A stretch of DNA of 64,000 nucleotides from Candidatus Omnitrophota bacterium (GCA_015233145.1 JADFYI010000001.1:79345-143344); one strand, 5' to 3'; shown: positions 7,296 through 46,260, counted from the first letter of the stretch. Numbers and translations: made by a program. Notes: generated by a model not told the origin, from the sequence alone.

Positions 7296-7302
7296 GAAAA
7301 AC

Positions 7303-7968: not shown

Positions 7969-8551
7969 AAAATTTATATATATTTTAAGTATATTTTTTT
8001 ATTCTGTTCTTATAACATCATTTTTTATAGGAGTGACACGAGCTGACGATGATACGGCGGCTGGGCCTGTGGATGATATTGAGGCTGCGATTTCGTCATT
8101 GATCAATCCTTTTTTGGCTAAAACACCTATTGAAAAGCCGTTGCCAAGGCCGATTGTTGTTCCGCCTACTGTTGAGCCTTCACCGGTTCCACCGGCTGTG
8201 CCGATTATTGAGCCAGAGCCGCCCCCGATTCCTGTCATGCCTCCTGTTATTGGTCCTGGGGATATCGGAGACTCCACAGGCAGGGGTGATACAGGGGCGT
8301 CTGCGGTAAAAGTGACCGGGATTATTTATAATTCAAAGCGTCCCCAGGCGATTATTAACGGCCAGCTGGTTGATGTGGGGCAAACATTTGGAGATCAGGG
8401 CAAAATGAAACTTTTAGCTGTTGAAAAAGGCAGTATTAAATTTCTTTCTAGAGGGCAAGAGCATACCCAGACATTAAATCAAGGCAATGGCCAGGGGAAG
8501 TCGGAAAATCTTTTGGCCACTGGCATCTATCAACCAACAGGTTCCCGGTAA
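7937..8551 (+). CDS. Proline-rich PilP/GspC-like periplasmic protein
   Basis: Signal/anchor FIYILSIFFYSVLITSFFIGV, a Pro-rich linker (PRPIVVPPTVEPSPVPPAVPIIEPEPPPIPVMPP), and a C-terminal beta domain VKVTGIIYNSKRPQAIINGQLVDVGQTF. An alternative GTG start at 7952 is likely. Confidence 0.4.
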   Translation: MRCFPVQKRTKKFIYILSIFFYSVLITSFFIGVTRADDDTAAGPVDDIEAAISSLINPFLAKTPIEKPLPRPIVVPPTVEPSPVPPAVPIIEPEPPPIPVMPPVIGPGDIGDSTGRGDTGASAVKVTGIIYNSKRPQAIINGQLVDVGQTFGDQGKMKLLAVEKGSIKFLSRGQEHTQTLNQGNGQGKSENLLATGIYQPTGSR

Positions 8552-8558
8552 TACACTT

Positions 8559-10226
8559 ATGACAAATTATAATATTTTCTTCATGTCTTTCTTGCTGTGG
8601 ATTTTTTCCGCGACACTGCCTTCCTTTCAATCTCAACAAGCTTTTGCGGATGAAGGGGGAGGAAGTTTATTTGTCCTTCCTCAATACTCGCGGACGGTTT
8701 CCCTGGATTTTAAAAATGCCAACCTTCAGGATGTCCTTAAGGCCTTTTCTCAGCAGATTGGGATTAACTTTTTGATTAATCAGAATGTGCCGGAAAAAAA
8801 TGTGACTGTTTATCTTGAGAATGTGCCGACAGAAGATGCCCTTGAGATGATCCTTTCCGCCAATGATCTCACTTATGAGTATCAAAGCGATGTGAATACC
8901 ATTGTTGTCAAAACAATCCCTAAAAAAGAGGAAGATATCGTAACGCGCATATACCAGCTCAAGTATGCGACAGTTTCTTCTTCCAAGATGAATGCCCTTT
9001 CCATTGGCTATGATGAGGGATCTTCAAGTTCAGGAAGTTCCTCATCATCTTCATCCGGGTCTTCTTCTGCTTCAGCTTCTGCGACGGGAACTGCCGGTGG
9101 GTCGGGGACTTCCGCAACTTCAACCATTGAATCAGCCTTGACAGCGGCTTTGACTGAAAAAGGAAAAATAGCCCAGGATCCGCGTACCAATAGTTTGATC
9201 ATTACAGATATGGCTGTCAATTTTCCTAATATTGAGAAAATTATTGCCCGTTTGGATGTGCCTGTGGCGCAAATTCTTATTGAAGTTGAAATGCTGGATG
9301 TTTCCAAAGGTGTTTTGGATGACCTGGGGGTTAAGTATAGCGGGTCTTTCTTTTCTCTAACCGGTGCCAAACGGGCAGCAACGTTTCCTTTTAATGAACA
9401 AAATGTTTTAAGTAAGCCTAATAAATATTCACCTGCGCAAAGCAGTTCTTCCTCGAGCAGTTCTTCCTCGAGTAGTTCTTCCTCGAGTAGCTCTTCATCG
9501 GGGTCGAATACTGGCTTGGAATTTACAGGCGGGGCTTTTGATTTCTCTTCCGCCACATTGCTGATTCAGGCTTTAAAAACGCGTTCAGACACCAAGAATT
9601 TGGCCCGCCCGAGAATACTCACGTTGAACAATCAGACAGCCAGGATTGATATCAAAACCGATGAAGCTATTTCTGCGGATACCTCTGTTGTTTCAACCAC
9701 AGGAGGCGCGTCAACCTCTGGCACCACTGTGACGCGTGCCAATACTGGTGTCTGGTTAATTGTGACGCCGCAAGCCAATCTTGTTACCAGAGAAATTACT
9801 CTTGCGGTGGAGCCTAAGGTTATTGACAGCCATGCCAGTTCTCTTGTTGTTCCTGGTGGCGCTGCCATAAGGGATACTGAAGAGAGGAGCATCAAGAGTA
9901 TATTAAGGGTTCCTGATGGAAGGACGATTGTGATCGGAGGCTTGCTACGCACAACATTGACAGACACATCCACAAAAGTTCCGCTCCTCGGAGACATTCC
10001 GCTTTTGGGCGGCCTTTTCAGGCACAAGGAGCACACCAAGGCAGAGCGCGAGCTTTTGGTGATCATGACTCCTCATATTTTACTGGGTGCTGATGATCAG
10101 TTTGTGGCGCCGAGGGCTAATTCCCGGGGAAGGTATGTGAATGATGACCGGGAACAAAGCCTGGAGAATTCCAGGTCCATGAAAATTTTAAATGAACTAG
10201 ACAGTTATTCTTCCCAAAAAAGGTAA
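8559..10226 (+). CDS. pilQ: Type IV pilus / type II secretion secretin (PilQ/GspD family) with two Ser-rich linkers
   Basis: ATG 8559 gives signal peptide MTNYNIFFMSFLLWIFSATLPSFQSQQAFA. N0-like domain (LDFKNANLQDVLKAFSQQIGINFLI). C-terminal secretin core (VPLLGDIPLLGGLFR...RELLVIMTPHIL). Confidence 0.85.
   Translation: MTNYNIFFMSFLLWIFSATLPSFQSQQAFADEGGGSLFVLPQYSRTVSLDFKNANLQDVLKAFSQQIGINFLINQNVPEKNVTVYLENVPTEDALEMILSANDLTYEYQSDVNTIVVKTIPKKEEDIVTRIYQLKYATVSSSKMNALSIGYDEGSSSSGSSSSSSSGSSSASASATGTAGGSGTSATSTIESALTAALTEKGKIAQDPRTNSLIITDMAVNFPNIEKIIARLDVPVAQILIEVEMLDVSKGVLDDLGVKYSGSFFSLTGAKRAATFPFNEQNVLSKPNKYSPAQSSSSSSSSSSSSSSSSSSSSGSNTGLEFTGGAFDFSSATLLIQALKTRSDTKNLARPRILTLNNQTARIDIKTDEAISADTSVVSTTGGASTSGTTVTRANTGVWLIVTPQANLVTREITLAVEPKVIDSHASSLVVPGGAAIRDTEERSIKSILRVPDGRTIVIGGLLRTTLTDTSTKVPLLGDIPLLGGLFRHKEHTKAERELLVIMTPHILLGADDQFVAPRANSRGRYVNDDREQSLENSRSMKILNELDSYSSQKR
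9441..9500 (+). repeat. Four tandem copies of a 15-nt unit (AGC AGT TCT TCC TCG) encoding 20 consecutive Ser inside the secretin gene
   Basis: Read directly: agcagttcttcctcg / agcagttcttcctcg / agtagttcttcctcg / agtagctcttcatcg. Confidence 0.9.
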
Positions 10227-10230
10227 GGAC

Positions 10231-11958
10231 ATGCCACGTTTAAGACTTGGAGAAATTCTTATCAAGCAGGGGCTTATTACAGAGTCCCAGCTCCAGGAGG
10301 CCATGGAGGTTCAAAAGGCTGAAAAGGGGCACATTGGAGAAATTCTTGTCCGCCGGGGCATGATTAAAGAGGAAGACCTGGCCTCAGCATTGGGCACACA
10401 GCTTTTGATTCCGTATGCTTCCAAATCATCAGGGCTTTTGACTCCGCAAAAAGATCAAGGCCTTGAAAAGCTGATTACCTACGAATACGCCAAAGAACAT
10501 TTTGTCATTCCTCTCAATCGCAATATGAATTCCCTGACGTGTGCTATTGCCAATCCCTTTGACTTGATCATGATCGATAACATCAAGAAGATGACGGGTT
10601 GCGAAATTAATTTTGTGATTGCCACTCAAACCGACCTTACTGCAGCTGTGCAGGAGTTTTATATGTCATCTGACAGCGGTGGAAGGTCTGCGTTGTGGGA
10701 CCAGGCCCTTGAGAGGGGGCGCATTTCCGATATCGGCAAAAGCTTTGCCAGCAGTGAGGACAAGGTTGAAACAGAGCTCAGCCTGGATAAGCTTATTGCC
10801 AAAGCAGAAGAAGCGCCGGTCATAAAACTGGTTGATTTGATTATCCGCCAGGCTATTGATGAGCGGGCGAGCGATATTCATATAGAACCTTTTAAAGACA
10901 GGCTTGAGGTTCGCTACCGCATTGACGGCGAACTTTACCAAATTCCTCCTCCGGCCAAACATTTGCATCTTCCTATTGTTTCGCGTGTCAAGATTCTCGC
11001 AAAGCTTGATATTGCGGAAAAACGCCTTCCGCAGGACGGTCGTATTTCTGCCAAGCTTGAAGACAGGACTGTGGATCTTCGTATTTCCACGTTGCCCACA
11101 GTGTGGGGAGAGAAGGTTGTTATGAGAATCCTGGACAAGGATTCTGTGCAGCTGAACCTCTCAGTGCTTGGGTTTGATACCAAACAATTGGATCTTATCC
11201 GCCAGGCCTTAAAAACACCTTACGGCCTTTTCTTTGTCACAGGCCCCACAGGAAGCGGCAAATCAACGACCCTTTATTCTTGCCTGAGCGAGATTACAGA
11301 CCCTTCGAAAAATATTATGACAGCCGAGGACCCGGTTGAGTTTCGTATCGACGGAATTAATCAGGTCCAGGTGCGCTCGGAAATCGGGTTTACCTTTGCC
11401 GAGGCGCTCAGGTCTTTTTTGCGCCAGGACCCGGATATCATCATGGTGGGTGAAGTGAGAGACCTTGAGACCGCGCAAATTTGCGTGCGTGCCGCGTTAA
11501 CAGGCCACTTTGTGCTTTCGACCCTGCACACCAATGATGCGCCATCCGCCATCACGCGCCTTTTGGATATCGGGATTCAACCCTATCTTTTAACACCATC
11601 GCTGGTCATGATTATTGCCCAGCGCCTGGGACGCAAGCTTTGCCCCCATTGCAAAGAGGCTTACGAGCCAAAGCCTGAAGAACTCGGGGATATTAAGCTT
11701 AATGTTGACCTCATTTATCGCGCCAAAGGGTGCGATAAATGTTCCCATACCGGTTACAGGGGAAGAATGGTTGTGGCTGAGGTCTTGATGATTGATGATG
11801 AGATAAGGCGCCTGATTTCCAGGGGCTGCACTTATACGGATTTAAGGGATGCTGCCCGCAAGTCAGGGATGTCAACTCTTTATGAATCAGGTTTAAAACA
11901 GGTGGAAGCAGGGCTTACGAGTTTGGATGAGATTCTTGGCGTTACAGTAGGGTCATAA
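10231..11958 (+). CDS. pilB: Type IV pilus assembly ATPase PilB/GspE family with N-terminal MshEN-type domain
   Basis: 575 aa. Walker A GPTGSGKSTT, tetracysteine CPHC...CDKC, and an N-terminal tandem RLGEILIKQGLI.../HIGEILVRRGMI... motif. Confidence 0.9.
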   Translation: MPRLRLGEILIKQGLITESQLQEAMEVQKAEKGHIGEILVRRGMIKEEDLASALGTQLLIPYASKSSGLLTPQKDQGLEKLITYEYAKEHFVIPLNRNMNSLTCAIANPFDLIMIDNIKKMTGCEINFVIATQTDLTAAVQEFYMSSDSGGRSALWDQALERGRISDIGKSFASSEDKVETELSLDKLIAKAEEAPVIKLVDLIIRQAIDERASDIHIEPFKDRLEVRYRIDGELYQIPPPAKHLHLPIVSRVKILAKLDIAEKRLPQDGRISAKLEDRTVDLRISTLPTVWGEKVVMRILDKDSVQLNLSVLGFDTKQLDLIRQALKTPYGLFFVTGPTGSGKSTTLYSCLSEITDPSKNIMTAEDPVEFRIDGINQVQVRSEIGFTFAEALRSFLRQDPDIIMVGEVRDLETAQICVRAALTGHFVLSTLHTNDAPSAITRLLDIGIQPYLLTPSLVMIIAQRLGRKLCPHCKEAYEPKPEELGDIKLNVDLIYRAKGCDKCSHTGYRGRMVVAEVLMIDDEIRRLISRGCTYTDLRDAARKSGMSTLYESGLKQVEAGLTSLDEILGVTVGS

Positions 11959-11967
11959 TGGAGTTTT

Positions 11968-13206
11968 ATGCCTAAATTTATTGTCACAGCAAAAGACCAG
12001 GCGGGTCTTACAAAGACTCAGGTTCTGGATACCCCGGACAAGAACCACGCTATTAATATTGTTCAAAAACAGGGCTTGTTTGTGGTGAGTATTGAAGGGG
12101 TGGACAATACAGCAGCCATGTCGTCTTCCCCTGTTCTTAGAAAGCCTACGGCCCGCACTTTTTCGCACACAGGTGCGAATTTGGATGATATTGTTTCTTT
12201 TTCTAAGCAACTGGCCACCATGCTCGAGGCTGGCGTTCCTCTTTTAAGGAGTCTTACGGTTATTGCCGACCAGGTGGAGAGCAGGGAATTGGCACGTATT
12301 TTAAGCGAGGTGCGTGCGGATGTTGAATCAGGCCAGTCTTTCAGTAAGTCCTTAGGCAAGCATCCCCGTGTTTTTTCGCCTTTTTGGGTGAGCCTTGTGG
12401 AGGTAGGGGAAGCCTCAGGCACAATGCCCAAAATACTGATAAAATTGACAGAGTATATGGAGCAGGCGGCCCAATTTCAGTCGCAGATTACCGGGGCCTT
12501 GATTTATCCGGCCGTCTTGGTTTGTATTTGTATTGGTGCTATCTTGGTGTTTGCGCTTTTTGTGGGGCCCACGTTTGAGAAAATTTTTAAAGATATGCAT
12601 ATTCAGCTTCCCGGCATTACGGTCATGATGCTGGCATTTTTTTCCTTTATTAAAACAAAGATTTTGTACCTTGTAGGCGGGATTATTCTGGGCCTGTTTT
12701 TATTCAAGAATTATATCAAAACCCGCCCAGGCCGTTTGGCATGGGAGGCGTTTCTTTTTTCAATGCCTGTAGGCGGGCCTGTGATCAAGCTGGTGGTGAT
12801 TGAGAAATTTGCCTCGCAAATGGCAATTTTGGTGGAAAGCGGGGTTCCTATCCTTTATGCCCTTGAGATTTCAGAAAGGCTTGTGGACAACCTTATTTGC
12901 GGATCGGTGATTAAAGATATCCGGGAAGCGGTCAAGGAAGGGAAGTTATTGGCGGATCCCATGGAACGCAGCAACTTTTTTCCGCCGATGGCTGTTCAGA
13001 TGATTCGTGTGGGTGAGGAAACCGGTGAGTTGGGCCAGATGCTGAACCACGTGGCCAGGTTTTATAAATCGCAGGTCGAAGAATTTGTAAAGCGTTTCGG
13101 CACACTTATTGAGCCTTTTATGCTGGTTTTTATGGGCATTATTATTGGAACTATTGTTGTGTCTATGTTTTTACCGATCTTGTCACTTTCAACAGGGGGA
13201 GGTTAA
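11968..13206 (+). CDS. pilC: Type IV pilus platform protein PilC/GspF family
   Basis: 412 aa with two T2SSF-like repeats and three TM regions. Motifs LATMLEAGVPLLRSL and MAILVESGVPILYAL. Confidence 0.9.
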   Translation: MPKFIVTAKDQAGLTKTQVLDTPDKNHAINIVQKQGLFVVSIEGVDNTAAMSSSPVLRKPTARTFSHTGANLDDIVSFSKQLATMLEAGVPLLRSLTVIADQVESRELARILSEVRADVESGQSFSKSLGKHPRVFSPFWVSLVEVGEASGTMPKILIKLTEYMEQAAQFQSQITGALIYPAVLVCICIGAILVFALFVGPTFEKIFKDMHIQLPGITVMMLAFFSFIKTKILYLVGGIILGLFLFKNYIKTRPGRLAWEAFLFSMPVGGPVIKLVVIEKFASQMAILVESGVPILYALEISERLVDNLICGSVIKDIREAVKEGKLLADPMERSNFFPPMAVQMIRVGEETGELGQMLNHVARFYKSQVEEFVKRFGTLIEPFMLVFMGIIIGTIVVSMFLPILSLSTGGG

Positions 13207-13225
13207 TCAAAAAGAAGGCTGAAAG

Positions 13226-13398
13226 AGGTGGGAAACGATAGTTTATTATTTGTCCTTATATCACATCTTATCCGGTATCCCACCCAACAGCTTTTATATA
13301 CAGGCAAATTCTCGCAGGAAAGGAGGGCGAATAAAAATATTTGAGTGTGCCAAGAAGTTATTGTTTTTTTAATTTTATAATCATTTTTGGAGGAACAT
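13226..13398 (+). promoter_or_regulatory. Conserved upstream region of major pilin gene copy 1 (promoter/5' UTR candidate)
   Basis: Blocks shared with 16690-16862: GTCCTTATATC, CAGCTTTTATATA, GCAGGAAAGGAGGG, TTTTAATTTTATAATCATTTTTGG. TATAAT at 13376-13381 and SD GGAGG at 13389-13393. Confidence 0.4.
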
Positions 13399-13860
13399 AT
13401 GCGTAACAAAAAAGGTTTTACACTTATTGAAGTCATTATCGTTATTGTCATCATCGGCATTATGGCCACACTGGCATTGCCGCGTATCACCGGGCAGTTA
13501 AATTCTTCGCAGGCCGCAGAAGCCATGCAGATGTTCGGGGCCTTAAGGCGCAGCGCCATGAACTGTTTTGATGTGGCTAACGCAACAACCAACACTCTTT
13601 GCGATACGTGGGCAGAGTTAGGCATGACTGCACCTTCTGCCAATTCCAAGTTCACTTATCAGGTCGATACGGCAACTGCTGGAAACATTGCTTTTAGAGC
13701 CATGTTTAAAGCTGATAATACCCAGGCTCTTTGTATGTCCATTAATAATGCAACGGGCGATACCGCATATACATATCTTGGCACTGTGTTTGCGGGCACT
13801 GCCACAAGATTGGGCGGCGCTGCAGGTTGTGCAGCCGGTACCTATGCGGCTATTCTGTAA
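13399..13860 (+). CDS. pilA: Type IV major pilin candidate, copy 1
   Basis: MRNKKG|FTLIEVIIVIVIIGIMATLALP is a class III signal/prepilin motif with Glu at +5. 153 aa with four Cys. GGAGG SD upstream and an intrinsic terminator immediately downstream. Confidence 0.85.
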   Translation: MRNKKGFTLIEVIIVIVIIGIMATLALPRITGQLNSSQAAEAMQMFGALRRSAMNCFDVANATTNTLCDTWAELGMTAPSANSKFTYQVDTATAGNIAFRAMFKADNTQALCMSINNATGDTAYTYLGTVFAGTATRLGGAAGCAAGTYAAIL

Positions 13861-13877
13861 TACGAGTAATTTTACGA

Positions 13878-13908
13878 AGAGGGGCTGGGCAACCAGCCCC
13901 TCTTTTGG
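13878..13908 (+). terminator. Rho-independent terminator/attenuator after pilin copy 1
   Basis: AGAGGGGCTGG-GCAA-CCAGCCCCTCT, an 11-bp GC-rich stem followed by TTT. Confidence 0.7.
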
Positions 13909-13930
13909 GTTAAAAGAAGCAGGGAATTTT

Positions 13931-14350
13931 ATGAAAAACGGTTTTACATTAATGGAAATTATCTTGGTGATCGTGATCCTTGGGATCTTAGGCACGATTG
14001 CCATCCCGAGATTTACAAGCACTAATGAAACCGCTGTTGCCGGAGAAGCGGTTCAGATTTTGACGGCATTGCATGGTTCACAGGCACGGTATTGTATTGA
14101 TTATCCGGCATTATGTGTTGCGGGGTCGTATCCTACTGTTTGCAGCACCTATGATGTTGATGTTCCGGCAGCCATGAAGAATTTTCGTGTGCTGACAGTT
14201 GCTGAGGGCGGCAGTTGCCAGAACAGCGGGAACCTGAGTCTTAAAAAGATTAACGGGACGATTTATACAGTAACTGTCAGTCCGGCCAATGTTTTTTCTT
14301 GTTCGCCTGCGGGTAACGGCTGCTCAATGGCTCAGCGTATTTTTCCGTAA
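13931..14350 (+). CDS. Prepilin-type minor pilin (Cys-rich), copy 1
   Basis: MKNG|FTLMEIILVIVILGILGTIAIP N-terminus, 139 aa. The longer ORF from 13688 would run through the terminator and is rejected. Confidence 0.8.
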   Translation: MKNGFTLMEIILVIVILGILGTIAIPRFTSTNETAVAGEAVQILTALHGSQARYCIDYPALCVAGSYPTVCSTYDVDVPAAMKNFRVLTVAEGGSCQNSGNLSLKKINGTIYTVTVSPANVFSCSPAGNGCSMAQRIFP

Positions 14351-14363
14351 AGGGTGGGTGCGT

Positions 14364-14774
14364 ATGACAAAAAAAGGATTTTCATTGGCAGAGGTTATGG
14401 TAGTATTGGTGACTGTAGGCATTATTGCGGCTTACGGGATCCCGAACTTTGGGAAGGCTATGACCCGTGCCCAGGCGAGGAGTGCTATCAGCAATCTTCA
14501 GCTTATTTATTCGGCGCAGCAGTTATATTTTGCACGGCAGGGAGTTTATGTTGCTGAAGCGACTACTGCGGCTATTAATGGGATGCTGGGGAATAATTCC
14601 TTGAATATCGTGCAAACCGGAGGAACAACATATAGTTGCCAGATTGCGGCAGCACCCGCAACTTGCACTGCTGCTAACGCGGCATTTAATGTGGTGGTTA
14701 CGCTTACAATTGCTCTTGCGGATAATAATGTTAATCCTGTGTGTACGAATGTTACTGCGGGCAGTTGCCCGTAA
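14364..14774 (+). CDS. Prepilin-type minor pilin, copy 1
   Basis: MTKKG|FSLAEVMVVLVTVGIIAAYGIP N-terminus, 136 aa. Confidence 0.8.
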   Translation: MTKKGFSLAEVMVVLVTVGIIAAYGIPNFGKAMTRAQARSAISNLQLIYSAQQLYFARQGVYVAEATTAAINGMLGNNSLNIVQTGGTTYSCQIAAAPATCTAANAAFNVVVTLTIALADNNVNPVCTNVTAGSCP

Positions 14775-14779
14775 TCGTT

Positions 14780-15160
14780 ATGATAAAAATTTCGCGTTGT
14801 GGGTTTTCTTTGCTTGAGGTTCTTGTGGCTGCGGTTATTTTCGCGATCGCGGCTGTGGGTATTTTTGGCACTATATCAGCAGCGAGAACCCCGACAAGAG
14901 ATTCCAATGCCAGGCTTGGTGCGGCCACGGACATGAAAAGGGTTTCCGATAAGATTCAAAGCCTGATTACGGCAGGCGCCTGGACTGCGGGAGATCCTTT
15001 GCTCAGTCCTGGGCTTCATCAAATTACTAGTTGTGCTGCTGGTTGTTTATTTTCAGCCACGGAGCCTGCTCCTGCTGCGGGGTCAACATATACAATTACG
15101 ACGGATGCTGCAGGAGGCGTTAATATTAATATCAATATCGCCTACACTAGTAATTTTTAG
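14780..15160 (+). CDS. Prepilin-type minor pilin (PilV/GspI-like size), copy 1
   Basis: MIKISRCG|FSLLEVLVAAVIFAIAAVGIF N-terminus, 126 aa. Confidence 0.75.
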   Translation: MIKISRCGFSLLEVLVAAVIFAIAAVGIFGTISAARTPTRDSNARLGAATDMKRVSDKIQSLITAGAWTAGDPLLSPGLHQITSCAAGCLFSATEPAPAAGSTYTITTDAAGGVNININIAYTSNF

Positions 15161-15190
15161 AATATTGTTATAATTTTTTATAGGTGAGTT

Positions 15191-15823
15191 ATGGCGGCGC
15201 ATTCTTATAAAGGTATTACCCTTGCTGAGCTTCTAGTTTCTCTTGTGGTTGTTGGTGTTGTGATGGTGGGGGTGACTGCTGCAGATCATGCCTTCCGGAG
15301 ACTCGATCGTGAAAACACCCATGATTCAACGCTTTATGTGCGCGCCATGGCCCTCGCGGAAATGATTCGAAAGGATGCCAATCTTGCCGTTGGCTCAGCG
15401 CTAAGCCCCGGCGTTCAAATAGACACTACTGCTAATAATTTTTTATGTTTTCGGCAGGATAATAATCACGATGGCAGTATCGATAATAACCCGGGAACAG
15501 TCGCACCTTTTATTGGAGTCAGAGATTCCTGGCAATGTTATTCCAAGCCAGGGGATACGGCAGCGGATGTGGATGTTTTTAAATGTACAAAAACCATTCC
15601 TGCCGGGCCAAGCGTTTGTGCCGTGGGGGATACAGGGTATCAGTATGTCGGGAAAATGGCCTGGGATGTTTTTACCATTGCGCCAAACCCGCCGACGTTT
15701 GTCGGTACTAAATTTACATTTACCCTGATTGACAGGGACGATCCAACGTCAGCCCAGAGCATATCAAATCCTGAGGTCAGAATCCCGATTAATGTCAACC
15801 CTCCCGCATATTCGGCCTCTTAA
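15191..15823 (+). CDS. Prepilin-type minor pilin (PilW/GspJ-like size), copy 1
   Basis: MAAHSYKG|ITLAELLVSLVVVGVVMVGV N-terminus, 210 aa. Confidence 0.7.
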   Translation: MAAHSYKGITLAELLVSLVVVGVVMVGVTAADHAFRRLDRENTHDSTLYVRAMALAEMIRKDANLAVGSALSPGVQIDTTANNFLCFRQDNNHDGSIDNNPGTVAPFIGVRDSWQCYSKPGDTAADVDVFKCTKTIPAGPSVCAVGDTGYQYVGKMAWDVFTIAPNPPTFVGTKFTFTLIDRDDPTSAQSISNPEVRIPINVNPPAYSAS

Positions 15824-15825
15824 AT

Positions 15826-16560
15826 ATGCACCGTTTTTTTGCCAACCTCAAGGAAGATTCTCAAAATGTTGTTATTGATGATGCCGACGAGCTGCATCAT
15901 TTAACTCATGCCCTTCGCTTAAAGCCGGGAGACAGGGTTGAGCTCATCAATGGCTGCGGGCTTTTGGCCGAGGCCGAAATACTATCCATATTAAAAAAAG
16001 AAGCCAGGCTCCTTGTTTTAGCTGTCCGTAATGCAGGAAGTCCGCGTCTTCCTCGGATTATTCTGGCCTGCGCAATCCCTAAGAAATCAAGATTTGAAGA
16101 TATCATTGATAAGTGTACCCAGCTCGGCGTTGATGAAATTATCCCCATGATAACCGAACGCACAGAATGTGTGCTGTCAGACAAAGCATTGCCTGCAAAA
16201 ATAGGCCGTTACCAAAAAGTCTTAAGGAGCGCTGTCAAGCAGTCGAAAAGGCTTTTCTCGCCGGTTATCCATGCCCCCATGCTATTTGACCACGTTTTGA
16301 AAAACTTTTGTAACGCCTCAACAGCTTCCTTTATTCCCTGGCTTGAGGGGAGTCGTATCCCCTTGAAAGAGGCCCTGGCAGAGGCGTCAGGAAAAGAAAA
16401 AATTCTTTTCTTGATAGGCCCGGAAGGGGACTTTACTCTTGCGGAAGTGGCGCAGGCGAAAGAAAAAGGTGCGGTGCCCGTGTCGTTAGGACCGAATGTG
16501 CTTCGTGTTGATACCGCGGCCCAGTTTGTGGCAGGAATGGCTGTGGTATTAAGGCAGTAA
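15826..16560 (+). CDS. rsmE: 16S rRNA (uracil1498-N3)-methyltransferase RsmE
   Basis: 244 aa. MHRFF start, PUA-like N-terminal part, and the C-terminal SPOUT motif LFLIGPEGDFTLAEV...LGPNVLRVDTAA. Confidence 0.85.
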   Translation: MHRFFANLKEDSQNVVIDDADELHHLTHALRLKPGDRVELINGCGLLAEAEILSILKKEARLLVLAVRNAGSPRLPRIILACAIPKKSRFEDIIDKCTQLGVDEIIPMITERTECVLSDKALPAKIGRYQKVLRSAVKQSKRLFSPVIHAPMLFDHVLKNFCNASTASFIPWLEGSRIPLKEALAEASGKEKILFLIGPEGDFTLAEVAQAKEKGAVPVSLGPNVLRVDTAAQFVAGMAVVLRQ

Positions 16561-16689
16561 AAAAAGATTTTTTTCTCCCGTCGAGCTTTATATCTTTCCA
16601 TGGTTTTGCACGTCAATATTTTTTAAAAGATAACGTTTCCCTGAGTTGACAAGGGGTTGTGTTGTGTGACATCCTTTAACTAGGTAGCT

Positions 16690-16862
16690 GAAATAGGCGG
16701 GGAACGAGACATTATTATTCGTCCTTATATCGCATCATACCCAGTATCCCCCCTACAGCTTTTATATAGAGACAAATTTTGGCAGGAAAGGAGGGGGAAG
16801 GGGTATCGTGTGCCAGTATGTCACTCGTTCTTTTAATTTTATAATCATTTTTGGGGGAATTT
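16690..16862 (+). promoter_or_regulatory. Conserved upstream region of major pilin gene copy 2
   Basis: Shares sequence blocks with 13226-13398. TATAAT at 16840-16845. Confidence 0.4.
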
Positions 16863-17324
16863 ATGCGTAATAATAAAGGTTTTACACTCATTGAAGTCAT
16901 TATCGTTATTGTCATTATCGGCATTATGGCCACACTGGCATTGCCGCGTATCACAGGGCAGTTAAATTCTTCGCAGGCCGCAGAAGCCATGCAGATGTTT
17001 GGCGCCTTAAGGCGCAGTGCCATGAACTGTTTTGATGTGGCTAATAACACAACCAACACTCTTTGCGATACATGGGCAGAGTTGGGCATGAATGCGCCTT
17101 CTGCCCAGGCTAAGTTTAATTATCAGGTCGATACAGGAACTGCGGGGTTTTTGTCTTTTAGAGCGGATTTTAAAAGCACTGCTGGTCACGCAATTTGCAT
17201 GACCATTAACGATGTAAATGGCGATATCGCGTATGAATATGAAGGCACTATTTTTGCTGGTACGGTGACAAGATTGGGTGGTGTCGCAGGTTGTGCTGCT
17301 GCTGGCTATAATGCTATTCTGTAA
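16863..17324 (+). CDS. pilA: Type IV major pilin candidate, copy 2 (divergent C-terminal half)
   Basis: MRNNKG|FTLIEVIIVIVIIGIMATLALP. 153 aa. The first ~80 aa are nearly identical to copy 1 and the rest is clearly different. The four Cys are at the same positions. Confidence 0.85.
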   Translation: MRNNKGFTLIEVIIVIVIIGIMATLALPRITGQLNSSQAAEAMQMFGALRRSAMNCFDVANNTTNTLCDTWAELGMNAPSAQAKFNYQVDTGTAGFLSFRADFKSTAGHAICMTINDVNGDIAYEYEGTIFAGTVTRLGGVAGCAAAGYNAIL

Positions 17325-17341
17325 TACGAATAATTTCACGA

Positions 17342-17372
17342 AGAGGGGCTGGGCAGCCAGCCCCTCTTTTGG
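17342..17372 (+). terminator. Rho-independent terminator/attenuator after pilin copy 2
   Basis: AGAGGGGCTGG-GCAG-CCAGCCCCTCT + TTT. The stem is identical to copy 1 and the loop differs by 1 nt. Confidence 0.7.
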
Positions 17373-17394
17373 GTTAAAAGAAGCAGGGATTTTT

Positions 17395-17814
17395 ATGAAA
17401 AACGGTTTTACATTAATGGAAATTATCTTGGTGATCGTGATCCTTGGGATCTTAGGCACGATTGCCATCCCGAGATTTACAAGCACTAATGAAACCGCTG
17501 TTGCCGGAGAAGCGGTTCAGATTTTGACGGCATTGCATGGTTCACAGGCACGGTATTGTATTGATTATCCGGCATTATGTGTTGCGGGGTCGTATCCTAC
17601 TGTTTGCAGCACCTATGATGTTGATGTTCCGGCAGCCATGAAGAATTTTCGTGTGCTGACAGTTGCTGAGGGCGGCAGTTGCCAGAACAGCGGGAACCTG
17701 AGTCTTAAAAAGATTAACGGGACGATTTATACAGTAACTGTCAGTCCGGCCAATGTTTTTTCTTGTTCGCCTGCGGGTAACGGCTGCTCAATGGCTCAGC
17801 GTATTTTTCCGTAA
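17395..17814 (+). CDS. Prepilin-type minor pilin (Cys-rich), copy 2
   Basis: Nucleotide-identical to 13931-14350. Confidence 0.8.
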   Translation: MKNGFTLMEIILVIVILGILGTIAIPRFTSTNETAVAGEAVQILTALHGSQARYCIDYPALCVAGSYPTVCSTYDVDVPAAMKNFRVLTVAEGGSCQNSGNLSLKKINGTIYTVTVSPANVFSCSPAGNGCSMAQRIFP

Positions 17815-17827
17815 AGGGTGGGTGCGT

Positions 17828-18238
17828 ATGACAAAAAAAGGATTTTCATTGGCAGAGGTTATGGTAGTATTGGTGACTGTAGGCATTATTGCGGCTTACG
17901 GGATCCCGAACTTTGGGAAGGCTATGACCCGTGCCCAGGCGAGGAGTGCTATCAGCAATCTTCAGCTTATTTATTCGGCGCAGCAGTTATATTTTGCACG
18001 GCAGGGAGTTTATGTTGCTGAAGCGACTACTGCGGCTATTAATGGGATGCTGGGGAATAATTCCTTGAATATCGTGCAAACCGGAGGAACAACATATAGT
18101 TGCCAGATTGCGGCAGCACCCGCAACTTGCACTGCTGCTAACGCGGCATTTAATGTGGTGGTTACGCTTACAATTGCTCTTGCGGATAATAATGTTAATC
18201 CTGTGTGTACGAATGTTACTGCGGGCAGTTGCCCGTAA
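17828..18238 (+). CDS. Prepilin-type minor pilin, copy 2
   Basis: Nucleotide-identical to 14364-14774. Confidence 0.8.
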   Translation: MTKKGFSLAEVMVVLVTVGIIAAYGIPNFGKAMTRAQARSAISNLQLIYSAQQLYFARQGVYVAEATTAAINGMLGNNSLNIVQTGGTTYSCQIAAAPATCTAANAAFNVVVTLTIALADNNVNPVCTNVTAGSCP

Positions 18239-18243
18239 TCGTT

Positions 18244-18624
18244 ATGATAAAAATTTCGCGTTGTGGGTTTTCTTTGCTTGAGGTTCTTGTGGCTGCGGTT
18301 ATTTTCGCGATCGCGGCTGTGGGTATTTTTGGCACTATATCAGCAGCGAGAACCCCGACAAGAGATTCCAATGCCAGGCTTGGTGCGGCCACGGACATGA
18401 AAAGGGTTTCCGATAAGATTCAAAGCCTGATTACGGCAGGCGCCTGGACTGCGGGAGATCCTTTGCTCAGTCCTGGGCTTCATCAAATTACTAGTTGTGC
18501 TGCTGGTTGTTTATTTTCAGCCACGGAGCCTGCTCCTGCTGCGGGGTCAACATATACAATTACGACGGATGCTGCAGGGGGCGTTAATATCAATATTAAT
18601 ATCGCCTACAGTAGTAATTTTTAG
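18244..18624 (+). CDS. Prepilin-type minor pilin (PilV/GspI-like), copy 2
   Basis: Identical to 14780-15160 up to 18578. One amino-acid change near the C-terminus (IAYSSNF versus IAYTSNF). Confidence 0.75.
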   Translation: MIKISRCGFSLLEVLVAAVIFAIAAVGIFGTISAARTPTRDSNARLGAATDMKRVSDKIQSLITAGAWTAGDPLLSPGLHQITSCAAGCLFSATEPAPAAGSTYTITTDAAGGVNININIAYSSNF

Positions 18625-18654
18625 AATATTATTATAATTTTATATAGGTGAATT

Positions 18655-19278
18655 ATGGTGGCGCATTCTTGTAAAGGTATTACTCTTCTTGAGCTTCTGG
18701 TTTCTCTTGTGGTTGTTGGTGTTGTGATGGCGGGGGTGACTGCCGCAGATCATGCCTTCCGCAGATTTGATCGTGAAAACACCCATGATTCAACGCTCTA
18801 TATACGCGCCATGGCTCTGGCGGAAATGATTCGAGTGGATGCCAGTCTTGCAGTGGGTTGGGCAACAAGCCCTGGCGTTCAAATTGATACCACTGCTAAT
18901 AATTTTTTATGTTTTCGGCAAGATAATAATCAAGATGGGGTCATTGACAACAATCCAGGAACAGTCGCGCCTTATATTGGAGTCAGAGATTCCTGGAAAT
19001 GCTATTCCAAGCCAGGAGCTGCGGCAGCGAATGTTAATGTTTACAAATGTTCAAGAACCATCCCTGCAGGCGCAGGTGCTTGCACCGCTGCTGATCAATA
19101 TGTGGGAAAAATGGCTTGGAATGTATTTGCCACTGCGCCAAATCCACCGACGTTTGCCGGAAATCAATTTATATTTACCGTTATTGACAGAGATGATCCT
19201 ACGCTAGCTAAAAGCATATCCAATCCTGAGGTTAAAATTACTATTAATGTCAATCCTGTTGGCCATTCTGCTTCTTGA
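18655..19278 (+). CDS. Prepilin-type minor pilin (PilW/GspJ-like), copy 2 (diverged)
   Basis: MVAHSCKG|ITLLELLVSLVVVGVVMAGV. 207 aa versus 210 aa for copy 1, with many substitutions spread along the protein. Confidence 0.7.
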   Translation: MVAHSCKGITLLELLVSLVVVGVVMAGVTAADHAFRRFDRENTHDSTLYIRAMALAEMIRVDASLAVGWATSPGVQIDTTANNFLCFRQDNNQDGVIDNNPGTVAPYIGVRDSWKCYSKPGAAAANVNVYKCSRTIPAGAGACTAADQYVGKMAWNVFATAPNPPTFAGNQFIFTVIDRDDPTLAKSISNPEVKITINVNPVGHSAS

Positions 19279-19287
19279 ACATCCCTT

Positions 19288-19316
19288 TTGACATCTTTTT
19301 CTCCCTTATGTATAAT
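19288..19316 (+). promoter_or_regulatory. Consensus sigma70-type promoter upstream of recA
   Basis: TTGACA (19288-19293), exactly 17 nt, TATAAT (19311-19316). A strong SD, AGGAGG, precedes ATG 19419. Confidence 0.55.
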
Positions 19317-19418
19317 CAAGCTCCCCTTAATTAGGAATCCTGTTTAAAAGCTTTAATTCTTGCCCCATACAGATGGCTTTTAAATTGGAATAAATATTAT
19401 TAATTATCAGGAGGAGTC

Positions 19419-20486
19419 ATGAACGAAGTTAAAAAACCTACACCGGCGGATGTGGAAAACAAGCGCAAGGCCCTGGATCTGGCGCTGACCCAGATTGAAA
19501 AACAGTTTGGCAAAGGCTCCATCATGAAGATGGACGGCCAGGCCAGGCTCGATGTGGATGCCATCCCGACAGGCGCCATTTCACTCGACCTGGCACTCGG
19601 TATCGGAGGGATTCCGCGCGGCCGCGTTGTTGAAATTTTCGGGCCGGAATCTTCAGGAAAAACAACCCTGACGTTAAGTGTTATCCATCAGATTCAGAAA
19701 AAAGGCGGGGTTGCGGCTTTTGTGGACGCGGAACATGCCTTTGATGCTACGTATGCGGCCAAGCTGGGTGTCAAGCTCGAGGACCTTTTGGTTTCCCAGC
19801 CGGATACCGGCGAGCAGGCGCTCGAGATTGCTGAAACTCTGGTGCGTTCCAATGCCGTTGATTTAGTGGTCATTGATTCTGTGGCCGCGTTAACGCCCAA
19901 GGCTGAAATCGAGGGCGATATGGGTGACAGCCACATGGGCCTGCATGCGCGGCTTATGTCGCAGGCCTTGCGCAAGCTGACAGCCGTCACGAGCAAGTCC
20001 AACACCTGCCTTATTTTCATTAACCAGATCCGCATGAAAATCGGCGTCATGTTTGGAAACCCTGAAACCACGACCGGCGGTAATGCCCTTAAGTTTTATT
20101 CGTCGGTGCGCATTGATTTAAGAAAGATTGAAACCCTTAAAAAAGGGGAAGAGGTGTACGGCAACCGTGTCAGGGCCAAGATCGTGAAAAACAAGGTTGC
20201 GCCGCCGTTTCGGGAGGCTGAGTTTGAGATCCTTTTTGACGAGGGGATTTCCTACCTTTCCGATATTATGGATTTGGGAACAAAATACGAAATTCTTGAA
20301 AAGTCAGGGTCATGGCTTTCGTTTGAGGGCGAGCGTTTGGGGCAGGGACGGGATAATGTTCGCAAGTATTTGCAGGATAACCCCAAAGTTGCCCAGAAAA
20401 TAGAAAAGGCTGTTTTGGAAAAAGCCAAGGTCAAGCCCACGACTGAGCCGCGCGTTGGCAAGGCCGAGGCCAAAAAGGCAGCGTAA
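19419..20486 (+). CDS. recA: Recombinase RecA
   Basis: 355 aa. Walker [11 protein letters not shown], with FVDAEHALD-like and [29 protein letters not shown] motifs. Confidence 0.97.
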
Positions 20487-20502
20487 TTTGGACGAATTAG
20501 AG

Positions 20503-20946
20503 ATGCTCAAAAAGGCGAAGGGTTACGCCCTTCGCCTTTTCAAATTAAGGCCACAGAGCGCCCTTGAGCTGGCTCAAAAACTTCGCCTCAAAGGGTATGG
20601 CGAAGAGATTGTTGAAAAAATCGTCCTGGATTGTAAAATATCAGGGTTTGTCAACGATGAGGAATTTGCCAAAGCCTGGCTCACGAGCCGCCTTAAAAAG
20701 TATGGCTTTCGCCGTGTGACGCTGGAGCTGGAGCGCAAAGGCATTGGAAAAGAGTTCATCCAAAAAGCCTGGGCTGAAACAAGAAACGATTACGATGAAG
20801 AAGCCCTGGTTCGCGACATTGTAGCCAGGCGTGTAAGAGTTTATCAAACAATCCCGCCTCTCAAACGCAAGAAACGCACCATGGATTATTTAATCCGTCG
20901 GGGTTTTGGTTTGGAGACGATTAACAAGGTGTTAAGAGAGTTATGA
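20503..20946 (+). CDS. recX: RecA regulator RecX
   Basis: Follows recA. Helical-repeat protein (ALRLFKLRPQSALELAQKL...). ATG 20503 is chosen because the 20455 start would overlap recA. Confidence 0.75.
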   Translation: MLKKAKGYALRLFKLRPQSALELAQKLRLKGYGEEIVEKIVLDCKISGFVNDEEFAKAWLTSRLKKYGFRRVTLELERKGIGKEFIQKAWAETRNDYDEEALVRDIVARRVRVYQTIPPLKRKKRTMDYLIRRGFGLETINKVLREL

Positions 20947-23591
20947 CAGGAAACGACATCCGCACAAAGTATCTTGAATTTTTTAAGTCTAAAAACCACA
21001 AGATTGTGATGAGCGATTCTTTGGTTCCCAAAGACGACCCAACGGTTCTTTTTACAACCGCAGGCATGCAGCAGTTTAAGCCGCAGTTTATGGGGCACAT
21101 TACTGATTTTACGCGCGCCACATCATCCCAGAAATGCCTGCGCACGGATGACTTGGCCGAGGTGGGGGTCACGGATTTTCATCATACCTGTTTTGAAATG
21201 TTGGGGAATTTTTCTTTCGGGGATTATTTTAAGAGTGAAGCCATTTCCTGGGCCTGGGAATTTTTGACAAATGTTATGAATATCCCAGCCGACAAGCTCT
21301 GGGTGTCGGTGAATAAGGATGATGTGGAGGCTTACGATATTTGGTCAAAAAATATCAAGATTCCTGCTTCCCGGATTGTCAAACTCGGCGACAAATCCAA
21401 TTTCTGGCCGTCGAATGCCCGTTTGAACGGGCCTAATGGCCCGTGCGGCCCGTGTTCGGAAATCTTTTTTGACTGGGGCGTCAACCCCCAGTGCAAGAAT
21501 CCGGATTGTAATCCTGACTGCAGCTGCGGCCGTTTTTGCGAGGTTTGGAACCTGGTTTTTACGCAATATAACCGCAAAGAAGGCGGAGTTCTGGAGCCTT
21601 TGCCAGCCAAGAACATTGATACCGGCATGGGGCTTGAGCGCCTCACAGCGGTGATGCAGGGCAAGCGCAATAATTTTGAGACAGATCTTTTTACGCCGAT
21701 TTTAGAGGCAATCCATAAGGCTGTCTCGGCTGAGAAAGCTAAAATCACGTTGCGGGAGAGCCGTGTCATTGCCGACCATATTCGCGCCGTGACCTTTGGC
21801 CTTGCAGACGGCGTTATGCCTTCCAATGAAGGCCGTGGCTATGTTATGCGCCGCCTGATTGTGGATATGACCAATATTTTAATCCAGGCCGGGATTAAAA
21901 AGCCTTTGGTGTATACATTTGTTGCTTCCGTGGTCAAGGTGATGAAGTCGCCCTACCCTGAACTTGCGGACAAGGAAAAAGAAATTGTTACCACGATTAA
22001 GCGCATTGAAGAAGCGGTGATCAAGTTGAATGGTGAAAAGGTTCCCGAGTTTCTAACAGAGCTGGATCAGCTCAAGGCTGACAACAGGGGCAATGCGGAT
22101 GCCTTGGGCGAGATGATGTTTCGTTATCGCGATACCTATGGCCTTCCCATGAACCTGATTCAGGCCAGGGTTTTGGAAAAATTCGGCGAGCCGGTGTCAA
22201 AAGCAGCTGGCGTTATTGTTGAGAAGCTCATGGAAGAACAGAAAGAGCGTTCACGCGCGGCCAGCAAAATGCAGGGCGATGTTTTTCTGTCTTCGGGTGT
22301 TGATGTGAAAGCAATCCCCAAAACTGTTTTTTTGGGGTTTGACCAGCCCTCAGCCGATGTCACCGTGGTTGCGATCTTTGTGGATGGACAGAAGGTGGAT
22401 GAGGCCAAGGACTCTCCTCATGTCCTTATTGTTTTTGATAAAACGCCGTTTTACGCCGAGCAGGGTGGACAGACAGCGGATATCGGCCATGTCCTGGCTA
22501 GAAAAGGGACTGTGGAAATTAAAGATACCCAAAAACAGGGGGAAGTTTTTATTCACCACGGGGCTCTTAAAGGAGAACTCAAGGTCAATGAGGTGGTGAA
22601 GGCCTCGATTGACGGTGAACGCCGCATGGCGATCATGCGCAATCATACGGCCACACATCTTCTTCAGGCCGCGCTTCGTCAGGTTTTAGGCGAGCATGTG
22701 AAACAGCAGGGGTCTTTGGTGGATGAAAACCGCCTTCGTTTTGATTTCACGCAGCCCAAGGCGCTTTCCAGGGAAGACCTGGAAAGGGTTGAAGATGTTG
22801 TGAATTCTTTTATCAGGCGTTCGGATATAGTTTTAAAAAAAGAAATGTCGATTGAGGAAGCCAAAACGAGCGGAGCTTTGGCATTTTTCGCCGAGAAATA
22901 TGGCGATAAGGTGCGGATTGTTTCGGTCGGGGAATATTCCAAGGAATTTTGCGGAGGCACGCACCTTGATACCACAGGCCAGATTGGCCTTTTTAAAATC
23001 CTGTCAGAGGGCGCTGTGGCGCAGGGGATTCGCCGTATAGAGGCGGTGACTGGTGTGGGTGCCTTGGCTTATGTTCGGGGCCGCGAAAAAGAGCTTCAAA
23101 ATGCCGCTGCGGTCTTGAAAGTTTCGCCAGAGGATCTTGTGCCCCGCCTGGAAGCCCAGGTGAAGCGCATGAAAGACCTTGAGAAAGACCTTAGTAATCT
23201 TAATTTTGAGATCATGAAAAATTCAATTGCTGATGTGATTGCCAGGGCTGAAGTTGTGGGCGGCATCAGTTTTGTAACACATCTTTTTAAAGATATTGAT
23301 ATGGAAACGCTTCGCCGGGTTTCTGATCTTGTGAAGCAAAAGTGCCCTTCATTTGTGGCTCTTCTGGCCGCCACATCCTCGGAGAGCGGTTCTGTGATAG
23401 TGTCCATCTCCGATGACTTGGTCAGGAAAAATATCAAAGCCGGGGAGCTTATCCAGAAAATTACGCCGCTTTTTAATGGCTCTGGCGGCGGGCGGCCGAA
23501 CATGGCCCAGGCCGGGTGCAAAGACCCTTTGAAACTCGCCTCGGTTTTTGAAGCAGCCCAAAAGATTGTTAAAGAAAGCTTAAAGACATGA
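20943..23591 (+). CDS. alaS: Alanine--tRNA ligase
   Basis: 882 aa. FTTAGMQQFKP, HHTCFEMLGNFSFGDYFK, editing-domain HTATHLL and a C-terminal DHHA1-like GGGRPNMAQAG. Confidence 0.97.
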   Translation: MTGNDIRTKYLEFFKSKNHKIVMSDSLVPKDDPTVLFTTAGMQQFKPQFMGHITDFTRATSSQKCLRTDDLAEVGVTDFHHTCFEMLGNFSFGDYFKSEAISWAWEFLTNVMNIPADKLWVSVNKDDVEAYDIWSKNIKIPASRIVKLGDKSNFWPSNARLNGPNGPCGPCSEIFFDWGVNPQCKNPDCNPDCSCGRFCEVWNLVFTQYNRKEGGVLEPLPAKNIDTGMGLERLTAVMQGKRNNFETDLFTPILEAIHKAVSAEKAKITLRESRVIADHIRAVTFGLADGVMPSNEGRGYVMRRLIVDMTNILIQAGIKKPLVYTFVASVVKVMKSPYPELADKEKEIVTTIKRIEEAVIKLNGEKVPEFLTELDQLKADNRGNADALGEMMFRYRDTYGLPMNLIQARVLEKFGEPVSKAAGVIVEKLMEEQKERSRAASKMQGDVFLSSGVDVKAIPKTVFLGFDQPSADVTVVAIFVDGQKVDEAKDSPHVLIVFDKTPFYAEQGGQTADIGHVLARKGTVEIKDTQKQGEVFIHHGALKGELKVNEVVKASIDGERRMAIMRNHTATHLLQAALRQVLGEHVKQQGSLVDENRLRFDFTQPKALSREDLERVEDVVNSFIRRSDIVLKKEMSIEEAKTSGALAFFAEKYGDKVRIVSVGEYSKEFCGGTHLDTTGQIGLFKILSEGAVAQGIRRIEAVTGVGALAYVRGREKELQNAAAVLKVSPEDLVPRLEAQVKRMKDLEKDLSNLNFEIMKNSIADVIARAEVVGGISFVTHLFKDIDMETLRRVSDLVKQKCPSFVALLAATSSESGSVIVSISDDLVRKNIKAGELIQKITPLFNGSGGGRPNMAQAGCKDPLKLASVFEAAQKIVKESLKT

Positions 23592-46210: not shown

Positions 46211-46260
46211 TGTGTCCTATTTTCGGCGGCAAAGTCCGGTTTCATTCCTTAAAAGATTTT

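Follow-up and report, generated by a model that had tools for sequence, protein, structure and literature searches.

The pilS copies of Neisseria are many, silent and truncated at the 5' end, and the system requires a guanine-quadruplex (G4) element beside pilE. The tufA and tufB genes of Salmonella and the rRNA operons are direct repeats kept identical in part by RecA-dependent gene conversion, mosaic in their divergence and with sharp tract ends. Myxococcus xanthus carries, in cluster_1 to cluster_3, several paralogous sets of four minor pilins that serve one assembly machine with at least partial redundancy and are thought to suit the pilus tip to different conditions; these clusters are dispersed, each has a PilY1, and they share one major pilin (PMC7541494). 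Type IVa pili are near-universal in the Omnitrophota, for which host attachment has been proposed (PMC10066038). Here we describe a pilin locus in a 64-kb window (the whole stretch of DNA analysed, to which all coordinates refer unless a related locus is named) from an uncultured Omnitrophota metagenome-assembled genome (MAG). In this window, a cassette of five pilin genes, A to E, is present twice as direct repeats on the two sides of rsmE, with a core that is identical in both copies and flanks that have diverged. It appears likely that this is an older duplication whose core has been homogenised by gene conversion, with both copies intact and under purifying selection, and that the two cassettes would provide two pilus variants under asymmetric expression.

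Two pilin cassettes and their mosaic divergence

The direct repeats lie at 13218-15823 and 16687-19278 with a constant offset of 3464 nucleotides (nt), and a gapped local alignment pairs 13218-15802 with 16687-19257, its small indels being limited to the leader before A, the A gene itself and 9 nt of E. A self-BLAST of the window returned a repeat of 2589 nt at 90.7% identity, and the protein similarity between the copies runs on to both stop codons. The gene order A-B-C-D-E is the same in both cassettes, and the ten genes are intact, each with a ribosome-binding site and an ATG (Table 1). A preliminary description of this DNA, made from the sequence alone, had reported two direct repeats at this offset with a shared gene order, and the gapped alignment together with the analysis of open reading frames (ORFs) and motifs bears it out within the bounds just given. 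The prepilin N-terminal methylation motif is found in all ten cassette products; PF07963 exceeded its gathering score in the cassette proteins scanned (A1, B1, C1, D1, E1, A2 and E2; B2, C2 and D2 are identical or nearly so to their counterparts), TIGR02532 matches A to D, and a scan of the whole window for the prepilin cleavage/methylation motif (G|FxxxE) returned exactly these 10 genes. Each A gene is followed by a hairpin, a terminator or attenuator, of -27.7 kcal/mol after A1 and -27.4 kcal/mol after A2 (z -4.8 and -4.0). The product of the gene between the cassettes is unambiguously RsmE, with matches to PF20260 (6e-12), PF04452 (1e-41) and TIGR00046 (153 bits against a cutoff of 41).

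Identity between the two copies is strongly mosaic, as the preliminary description had claimed. The cassettes differ at 217 of 2567 aligned positions, and the longest exact run at the offset of 3464 is 1188 nt (13927-15114 equals 17391-18578), whereas 2000 permutations gave longest runs with a mean of 67 and a maximum of 149. This run had been noticed before and is indeed found in the sequence as assembled; it was said to span three minor pilin genes, which holds for B and C, but D is included only with the first 335 of its 381 nt. On exact realignment, the divergence was non-uniform, with segment identities from 0.763 to 1.0: 0.82 in the leader, 0.956 in codons 1-60 of A (7 synonymous differences and 1 non-synonymous), 0.763 in codons 61-153 of A, 0.943 in the A-B spacer, 1.0 in the core, 0.908 in the tail of D, and 0.911, 0.817 and 0.776 along the length of E. 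At the level of amino acids (aa), A1 and A2 are 80% identical with only one difference before residue 61, and E1 and E2 are also 80% identical. The right edge of the core is sharp at 15114/15115, with no differences inside and one per 10-15 nt from 15115, and the left edge is gradual, tapering across the A-B spacer; outside the core, exact runs are of 44 nt or less.

The segments differ in age, and protein constraint cannot explain the mosaic, because the synonymous divergence (dS) is itself heterogeneous. By Nei-Gojobori estimates, dS is 0.20 in codons 1-60 of A and 0.64 in codons 61-153, with ratios of non-synonymous to synonymous divergence (dN/dS) of 0.04 and 0.39, respectively; it is 0.03 in the 46-nt tail of D outside the core, where dN/dS is not informative, and 0.21, 0.69 and 1.11 in the successive thirds of E, with dN/dS of 0.28, 0.16 and 0.14. 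The core has a dS of 0, with no difference at about 285 synonymous sites; at the lowest proportion of synonymous differences in the flanks (pS, 0.17), about 48 would be expected there, and the probability of finding none is about 1e-21. For the whole A1-A2 pair, dN/dS is 0.33. The ratio is below 0.4 throughout, and therefore both copies are under purifying selection, with no sign of positive diversification. The high dS of the 3' part of A and of E (0.64-1.1) shows that these are older segments, not faster protein evolution. The preliminary description had proposed that A and E diversify; as an effect of selection this found no support: dN/dS is 0.39 in the C-terminal part of A and 0.14-0.28 in E, and with values below 0.4 positive selection on either gene was rejected.

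Gene conversion homogenising the core, which the preliminary description had also suggested, is the best reading of this pattern (P about 1e-21 for zero synonymous differences), since zero core differences are impossible at the age of even the least-diverged coding flank. The identity of paralogues compared with orthologues, the length of the identical tract and the heterogeneity of dS (0 to 1.1) are all as concerted evolution would have them; E1 and E2 are at most 36% identical to any orthologue, and A1 and A2 are about 49% identical to the orthologue of L001, one of the four nearest relatives. The anatomy, the synteny, the mosaic, the dS and dN values and the promoter asymmetry are seen in the sequence itself, and the conversion mechanism, the expression of both copies and their function are what we infer. 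Intrachromosomal gene conversion, non-reciprocal and presumably RecA-dependent, would have repeatedly overwritten the middle of one copy, the latest tract being of at least 1188 bp with its sharp right end at 15114/15115 and older tracts accounting for the intermediate zones, and the C-terminal two-thirds of A and E would keep an older divergence of about 20% in aa. The genes for the ATPase, the platform protein, the secretin and the PilM-like and PilO-like proteins are all directly upstream of cassette 1. With both copies intact and under purifying selection, the cell can probably build two pilus variants on one machine, which would be set apart by the exposed portion of their major subunit and by a single minor subunit and would have three minor pilins in common.

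Synteny, promoters and origin of the second cassette

The window proteins were compared by tblastn with 80 PilC-anchored loci, of which L001 to L004 are the four nearest relatives. The PilC relatives all belong to Omnitrophota MAGs, and the best match is 67% identical. The order common in these loci is PilM-N-O-Q-B-C, then pilins of the A-B-C-D-E type, rsmE and recA-recX-alaS; rsmE is downstream of the pilins in 42 loci, 34 of which continue into recA, and E1 orthologues are found in at least 28 relatives. As to whether one or two cassettes is ancestral, a question raised in the preliminary description, L001-L004 have a single cassette and pilC-to-rsmE gaps of 2.3-3.1 kb, compared with 2.6 kb for cassette 1. 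The spacing of 2 nt between E1 and rsmE and the adjacency of pilC and A1 are as in the relatives. The positions of rsmE and recA are thus ancestral, and the second cassette in the rsmE-recA spacer is the sole novelty. The position of rsmE between the cassettes had been called unusual, and the adjacency of recA had been hinted to be relevant; neither view holds, as pilins-rsmE-recA-recX-alaS is a conserved Omnitrophota synteny in which only the second cassette is new.

Self-BLAST of all loci revealed duplications of single pilin genes in 10 of them (L008, L014, L017, L026, L031, L034, L035, L036, L041 and L050), of about 0.2-0.8 kb and 70-90% nt identity; among the loci examined in this way, a whole-cassette duplication with an identical core is found in the window alone. 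In L014, a second major pilin gene (19258-19665), with 74% nt identity to the first copy, is located just upstream of recA and is an independent duplication into the same spacer region as cassette 2 of the window. At 14402-15769, where its last pilin gene is followed by rsmE in the other order of genes, the same locus has an inserted gene whose product is an HTTM / vitamin-K-carboxylase-like membrane protein. Between rsmE and recA, roughly every second related locus (for instance L005, 15113-16915, and L014, 17212-19017) encodes a 600-aa membrane protein with a PMT_2 (GT-C glycosyltransferase) domain and C-terminal TPR repeats, which may be a pilin or envelope glycosyltransferase; the rsmE-recA gap of such loci is about 2.0-2.7 kb, and the gene is missing from the spacer of the window.

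Aligned pilC-A spacers and both leaders of the window revealed a pilin promoter conserved across relatives, consisting of TTGACA, 17-18 nt, an extended -10 element TGnCATACT/TATACC and then TTAAnTAG. It is present downstream of pilC on the + strand in 18 related loci (L001 11263-11293, L003 8033-8063, L006 11266-11296 and 15 others), and 16 of these occurrences were confirmed to be followed, after a long leader of 170-420 nt, by a major pilin gene. The pattern TTGAC-N15-20-TGNYATMCYTW has two matches in the window against 0.01 expected; besides the promoter of cassette 2, it matches 40195-40230, inside the amidase ORF 39063-40490, which is probably a chance occurrence. The promoter is kept before cassette 2 only and is lost by cassette 1. 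The PilC protein before copy 1 stops at the same residue as its orthologue in L001 (...LSLSTGGG), 11 nt separate its stop codon from the start of the leader homology, and about 60 nt with the -35 and -10 elements are absent before cassette 1; the repeat in copy 2 reaches about 40-60 nt further left, to about 16627-16646, and includes the promoter missing from copy 1. Between pilC and A1, neither a sigma-70-like site on the + strand nor a terminator was found, which argues that A1-E1 are probably transcribed by read-through from pilC; A2 would be transcribed from its dedicated promoter, and expression of the cassettes is thus predicted to be asymmetric. A layout in which pilC is directly followed by a pilin paralogue without the canonical promoter, and this in turn by that promoter and a second major pilin gene, is also present in L026, L031 (11267-11685), L036, L041 (1535-1953), L050 and L051, with copies of 70-84% nt identity where self-BLAST detected them (L026, L031, L036, L041 and L050).

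In the leaders, the blocks ATTATTTGTCCTTATATCGCATCATACC and GAAAGGAGG (window 13240-13330 and 16710-16800; L001 11340-11420; L003) are conserved at the nt level, and this conservation spans genera whose PilC proteins are 61-67% identical; for the pilin leader, RNAalifold gave no consensus structure and Rfam no match, nor were there Rfam matches elsewhere in the region. On the other side of cassette 2, the region of the recA promoter aligns over 49 nt with the upstream regions of L001 (about 14772-14820) and L002 (about 14314-14362). This conserved promoter is found directly after E2, and therefore the insertion of cassette 2 left it intact. A (TG)ACATCC(C)TTT motif is present at both junctions of cassette 2 and at the -35 box of recA (16667-16677, 19279-19289 and 19289-19299; p about 0.03-0.04) and could be a microhomology used in the duplication, or chance; being only marginally non-random, it was not used as evidence of a target-site duplication.

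The duplication would postdate the split from all sampled relatives. Cassette 1 would keep the ancestral site between pilC and rsmE, and cassette 2, in the rsmE-recA spacer, would duplicate the whole stretch between the pilC stop codon and the 3' end of E, canonical promoter and leader included. This could have come about by a copy-paste insertion into the spacer together with promoter loss in copy 1, or by a tandem duplication of the segment running from the promoter through E and rsmE to the spacer, after which the second rsmE and the first promoter were deleted. Both routes fit. Beyond the ends of the repeats, the left flanks have no homology to each other, the right flanks likewise, and a relic of a second rsmE was not found after E2.

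Table 1. Features of the pilin locus and its neighbourhood, in window positions.
Feature	Position	Strand	Remarks
Pilus assembly operon, type IV pilus-like	5724-13206	+	Pfam and NCBIfam matches; order shared by up to 80 Omnitrophota loci
PilM-like gene	5724-7295	+	
PilO-like gene	7303-7968	+	
ORF between PilO-like and secretin genes	7937-8551	+	no family assigned
Secretin, PilQ/GspD-like	8487-10226	+	
Extension ATPase PilB/GspE with MshEN domain	10231-11958	+	
Platform protein PilC/GspF	11968-13206	+	
Leader U1, cassette 1	13218-13398	+	82% identical to U2; homologous to relatives' leaders; without -35/-10 block
A1, major pilin paralogue 1, 153 aa	13399-13860	+	N_methyl E 5.8e-10; first gene of the cassette; terminator after
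Hairpin terminator or attenuator 3' of A1 / A2	13876-13906 / 17340-17370	+	13-bp GC-rich stem
Identical core, copy 1	13927-15114	+	B1, C1 and first 335 nt of D1
B1 / B2, minor pilin, 139 aa	13931-14350 / 17395-17814	+	
C1 / C2, minor pilin, 136 aa	14364-14774 / 17828-18238	+	
D1 / D2, minor pilin, 126 aa	14780-15160 / 18244-18624	+	
E1, largest minor pilin, 210 aa	15191-15823	+	N_methyl; no subfamily assigned
rsmE, 16S rRNA m3U1498 methyltransferase	15826-16560	+	directly after cassette 1
Major-pilin promoter, cassette 2	16646-16677	+	TTGACA, 18 nt, extended -10 TGaCATCCT
Leader U2, cassette 2	16687-16862	+	
A2, major pilin paralogue 2, 153 aa	16863-17324	+	
Identical core, copy 2	17391-18578	+	B2, C2 and most of D2
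E2, minor pilin paralogue, 207 aa	18655-19278	+	
recA promoter	19288-19316	+	TTGACA, 17 nt, TATAAT; 12/12 matches; 10 nt past E2 stop
recA	19419-20486	+	
recX	20455-20946	+	
alaS	20943-23591	+	

The last gene of the cassette, E, had been described as PilW-like. Profile searches gave no PilW match, and no PilW or GspJ model reached significance: gspJ matches 3 of 28 members of the E family, with E no better than 0.063, and the best weak matches are to HpsC and PRK10557 (13 of 28 members each), PilV and GspH. The match of E to Protein Data Bank (PDB) profiles is confined to the N-terminal helix, and an AlphaFold model of E1, from an alignment of two sequences, had a pLDDT of 35.6 and was unusable. 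The size of E and its last place in the cassette are compatible with a subunit of the GspJ/PilW class, which they fit but do not prove.

In the assembly operon, the MshEN domain of the extension ATPase is N-terminal (PF05157, 6e-15); elsewhere, MshEN is a module that binds cyclic di-GMP. The PilM-like protein has 523 aa, compared with about 350 aa in the PilM profile, whose match is confined to residues 45-214; this length is conserved in relatives, and at the C terminus the other half of the protein may represent a novel domain or a PilN-like one that has been fused on. The window is otherwise ordinary chromosome, with his, trp, secDF, mfd-like and amidase genes and a tRNA-Met (46260-46335). 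Its long ORFs are nearly all on the + strand, the sole clear exception being a PFK-like gene (62967-63887, - strand), and GC skew is positive across the whole of 9-24 kb. An ORF of 892 aa at 46565-49243 is without a Pfam match at E <= 1e-5.

Alternative explanations and the assembly

Several points weigh against an old duplication with a converted core. The organism is known from one assembly and one contig, on which both the two-copy state and its timing depend. In a search of 5.8 billion proteins, rsmE matched the source MAG first and its next-best homologue was 59% identical, and no close relative of the source was found in GTDB representative genomes or in metagenome contigs of the Joint Genome Institute (JGI); a scan of metagenome contigs with rsmE gave three distant loci, none close. 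The cassette proteins, deposited at NCBI under the consecutive accessions MBF0484970-MBF0484980, each form a singleton cluster, and a homology search with E1 matched only E1 and E2. The conversion is read from the pattern, and a similar mosaic would arise if a young duplication had received diverged alleles in its flanks; expression of either cassette is a prediction. Finally, in a short-read graph, the 1188-bp repeat is one edge traversed twice, in which sparse core differences are invisible. The source MAG is probably such an assembly, made from Illumina reads with metaSPAdes, to judge from the accession block that it shares with JADF-prefixed MAGs such as JADFXT (e.g., MBF0521830, L026); for that set, metaSPAdes 3.13 was run on Illumina reads (PMC7602337), and the membership of the source in this set is itself deduced from the accessions. 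With k = 55, the core alone is a repeated edge, as exact runs elsewhere do not exceed 44 nt, and the graph is a simple loop with its entry at A1, its exit at E2 and E1-rsmE-promoter-A2 as the loop, for which the assembled path is the sole linear one using every edge. It is possible, although we lean against it, that the duplication and the mosaic are real and the perfect 1188 bp has been inflated by the assembler or by polishing. In a graph of k = 55, isolated single-nucleotide polymorphisms more than 55 nt apart would be bubbles popped by metaSPAdes, sparse core differences would be merged, and the core edge would be emitted twice; exact runs outside the core stop just below k, as such a graph would give. 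However, there is no direct evidence of hidden variants, and the hidden divergence would be at most 1-2%, compared with 5-24% in the flanks, such that the mosaic and its reading stand. Another artefact would be the chaining of strain variants of one cassette, or a separate 3464-bp circle or sub-population beside a chromosome with pilC-A1-core-E2-recA, and this we regard as most improbable. The MAG is known from a single contig, presumably of short-read metaSPAdes origin, the repeat exceeds typical insert sizes, and assemblers resolve a simple loop through rule or coverage; but a strain chimera needs k-mers shared at the joins, and none is present. The novel junctions 16561-16690 and 19276-19290 share no long exact word with the other copy, and therefore a de Bruijn mis-join of strain variants is unlikely as their cause. 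U2 is preceded not by pilC but by the 3' flank of rsmE with the canonical promoter, and E2 is followed not by rsmE but by the conserved promoter of recA; the spacing of E1 and rsmE and the adjacency of pilC and A1 match the relatives, and no linear path other than the assembled one uses all edges. The version with a circle would strip the chromosome of rsmE and of the conserved pilin promoter and place them on a circle without a replication gene. As to the deletion of 3464 bp that the preliminary description predicted from recombination between the perfect repeats, its geometry is correct.

A different history, which we consider unlikely, is a recent duplication of the whole cassette in which homologous recombination then exchanged the leader, A and E of one copy for diverged alleles carried by other strains. 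Allelic exchange is well known to affect pilin genes, the core ends abruptly on its right side, and related loci often have major-pilin paralogues of 70-90% identity, which makes diverged donor alleles plausible. However, such imports must have covered the whole repeat apart from the core, in no fewer than two separate tracts of different ages (dS about 0.2 in the leader and the 5' part of A, 0.64 in the 3' part of A, and 0.21 to 1.1 along E), no A2- or E2-like allele was present in any database searched, and A1/A2 and E1/E2 are mutually closest by a wide margin. The promoter asymmetry, the promoterless-paralogue layout of 6 other loci, the long perfect repeat as a strong substrate for recombination, and the host attachment proposed for the Omnitrophota with their near-universal type IVa pili (PMC10066038) could also be seen as signs of programmed pilus variation like that of pilE/pilS, in which cassette 1 would be a promoterless donor, cassette 2 would be expressed, and RecA-mediated exchange of A and E or a deletion switch would vary host or surface specificity or evade phages. 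We give this very little credence: A1 lacks the canonical promoter but is full-length, with a start codon and a ribosome-binding site of its own, and purifying selection acts on it (dN/dS 0.33), unlike silent pilS; two copies make a tiny repertoire; and neither a G4 motif (three or more G per tract, four tracts) on the two strands of 13000-19600, nor inverted repeats of at least 30 nt in 12000-21000, nor an invertase was found. An inversion switch of the Piv or Moraxella type lacks its inverted repeats here, and all ORFs of the region are accounted for. It seems equally far-fetched that the locus is a two-state device for pilus variation in a host-attached nanobacterium, with cassette 2 as the expression site and cassette 1 as a weakly expressed or read-through donor. 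If it were so, conversion or deletion across the core would reshuffle the major-pilin surface and the E subunit that are made, the rsmE trapped in the loop would penalise deletion and so stabilise the duplication, and the promoterless pilC-proximal paralogues of other Omnitrophota would reflect a phylum-wide strategy. The composition of the cassette region shows no anomaly, and with neither G4 motifs nor inverted repeats, mobile-element, invertase and pilE/pilS-type mechanisms were set aside.

Comparison with known systems

Multiple minor-pilin sets and concerted evolution driven by conversion are already known, and the present case is real, tidy and ordinary, although the phylum is poorly known; it does not overturn what is understood of gene conversion or of pilin gene families. 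Should the structure be real, one machine could give an Omnitrophota cell two types of pilus surface, which bears on attachment in nanobacteria that probably depend on hosts, and the locus offers a clean natural example of partial concerted evolution within an operon-sized repeat. Perhaps more useful are the by-products, namely the synteny of the phylum, the major-pilin promoter motif and the recurrent promoterless pilin paralogue next to pilC.

As in pilE/pilS, an expression site here has a further pilin copy nearby, the promoters are asymmetric, and sequence has probably moved between the copies by conversion. However, both copies are complete genes, there are two only, the G4 motif is missing, and the conversion tract homogenises minor pilins and does not vary the major pilin. 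With tufA/tufB it shares partly homogenised direct repeats on one chromosome and a mosaic divergence with sharp tract ends; but tufA/tufB and the rRNA operons are highly constrained housekeeping genes, whereas here the homogenised part consists of three minor pilin genes and the unconverted part encodes surface-exposed domains of subunits. Other pilin paralogues of the Omnitrophota are found in the same locus and phylum at 70-90% nt identity, but those duplications comprise one pilin gene and have no identical core, while the window has a 2.6-kb cassette of five genes enclosing rsmE. The M. xanthus clusters resemble it in having multiple sets of minor pilins beside a single type IVa pilus machine, and differ in that the window has a duplicate of the major pilin as well, lacks a PilY1-like gene, and has its sets separated by 0.9 kb, with identity between them in three of the four minor pilins.

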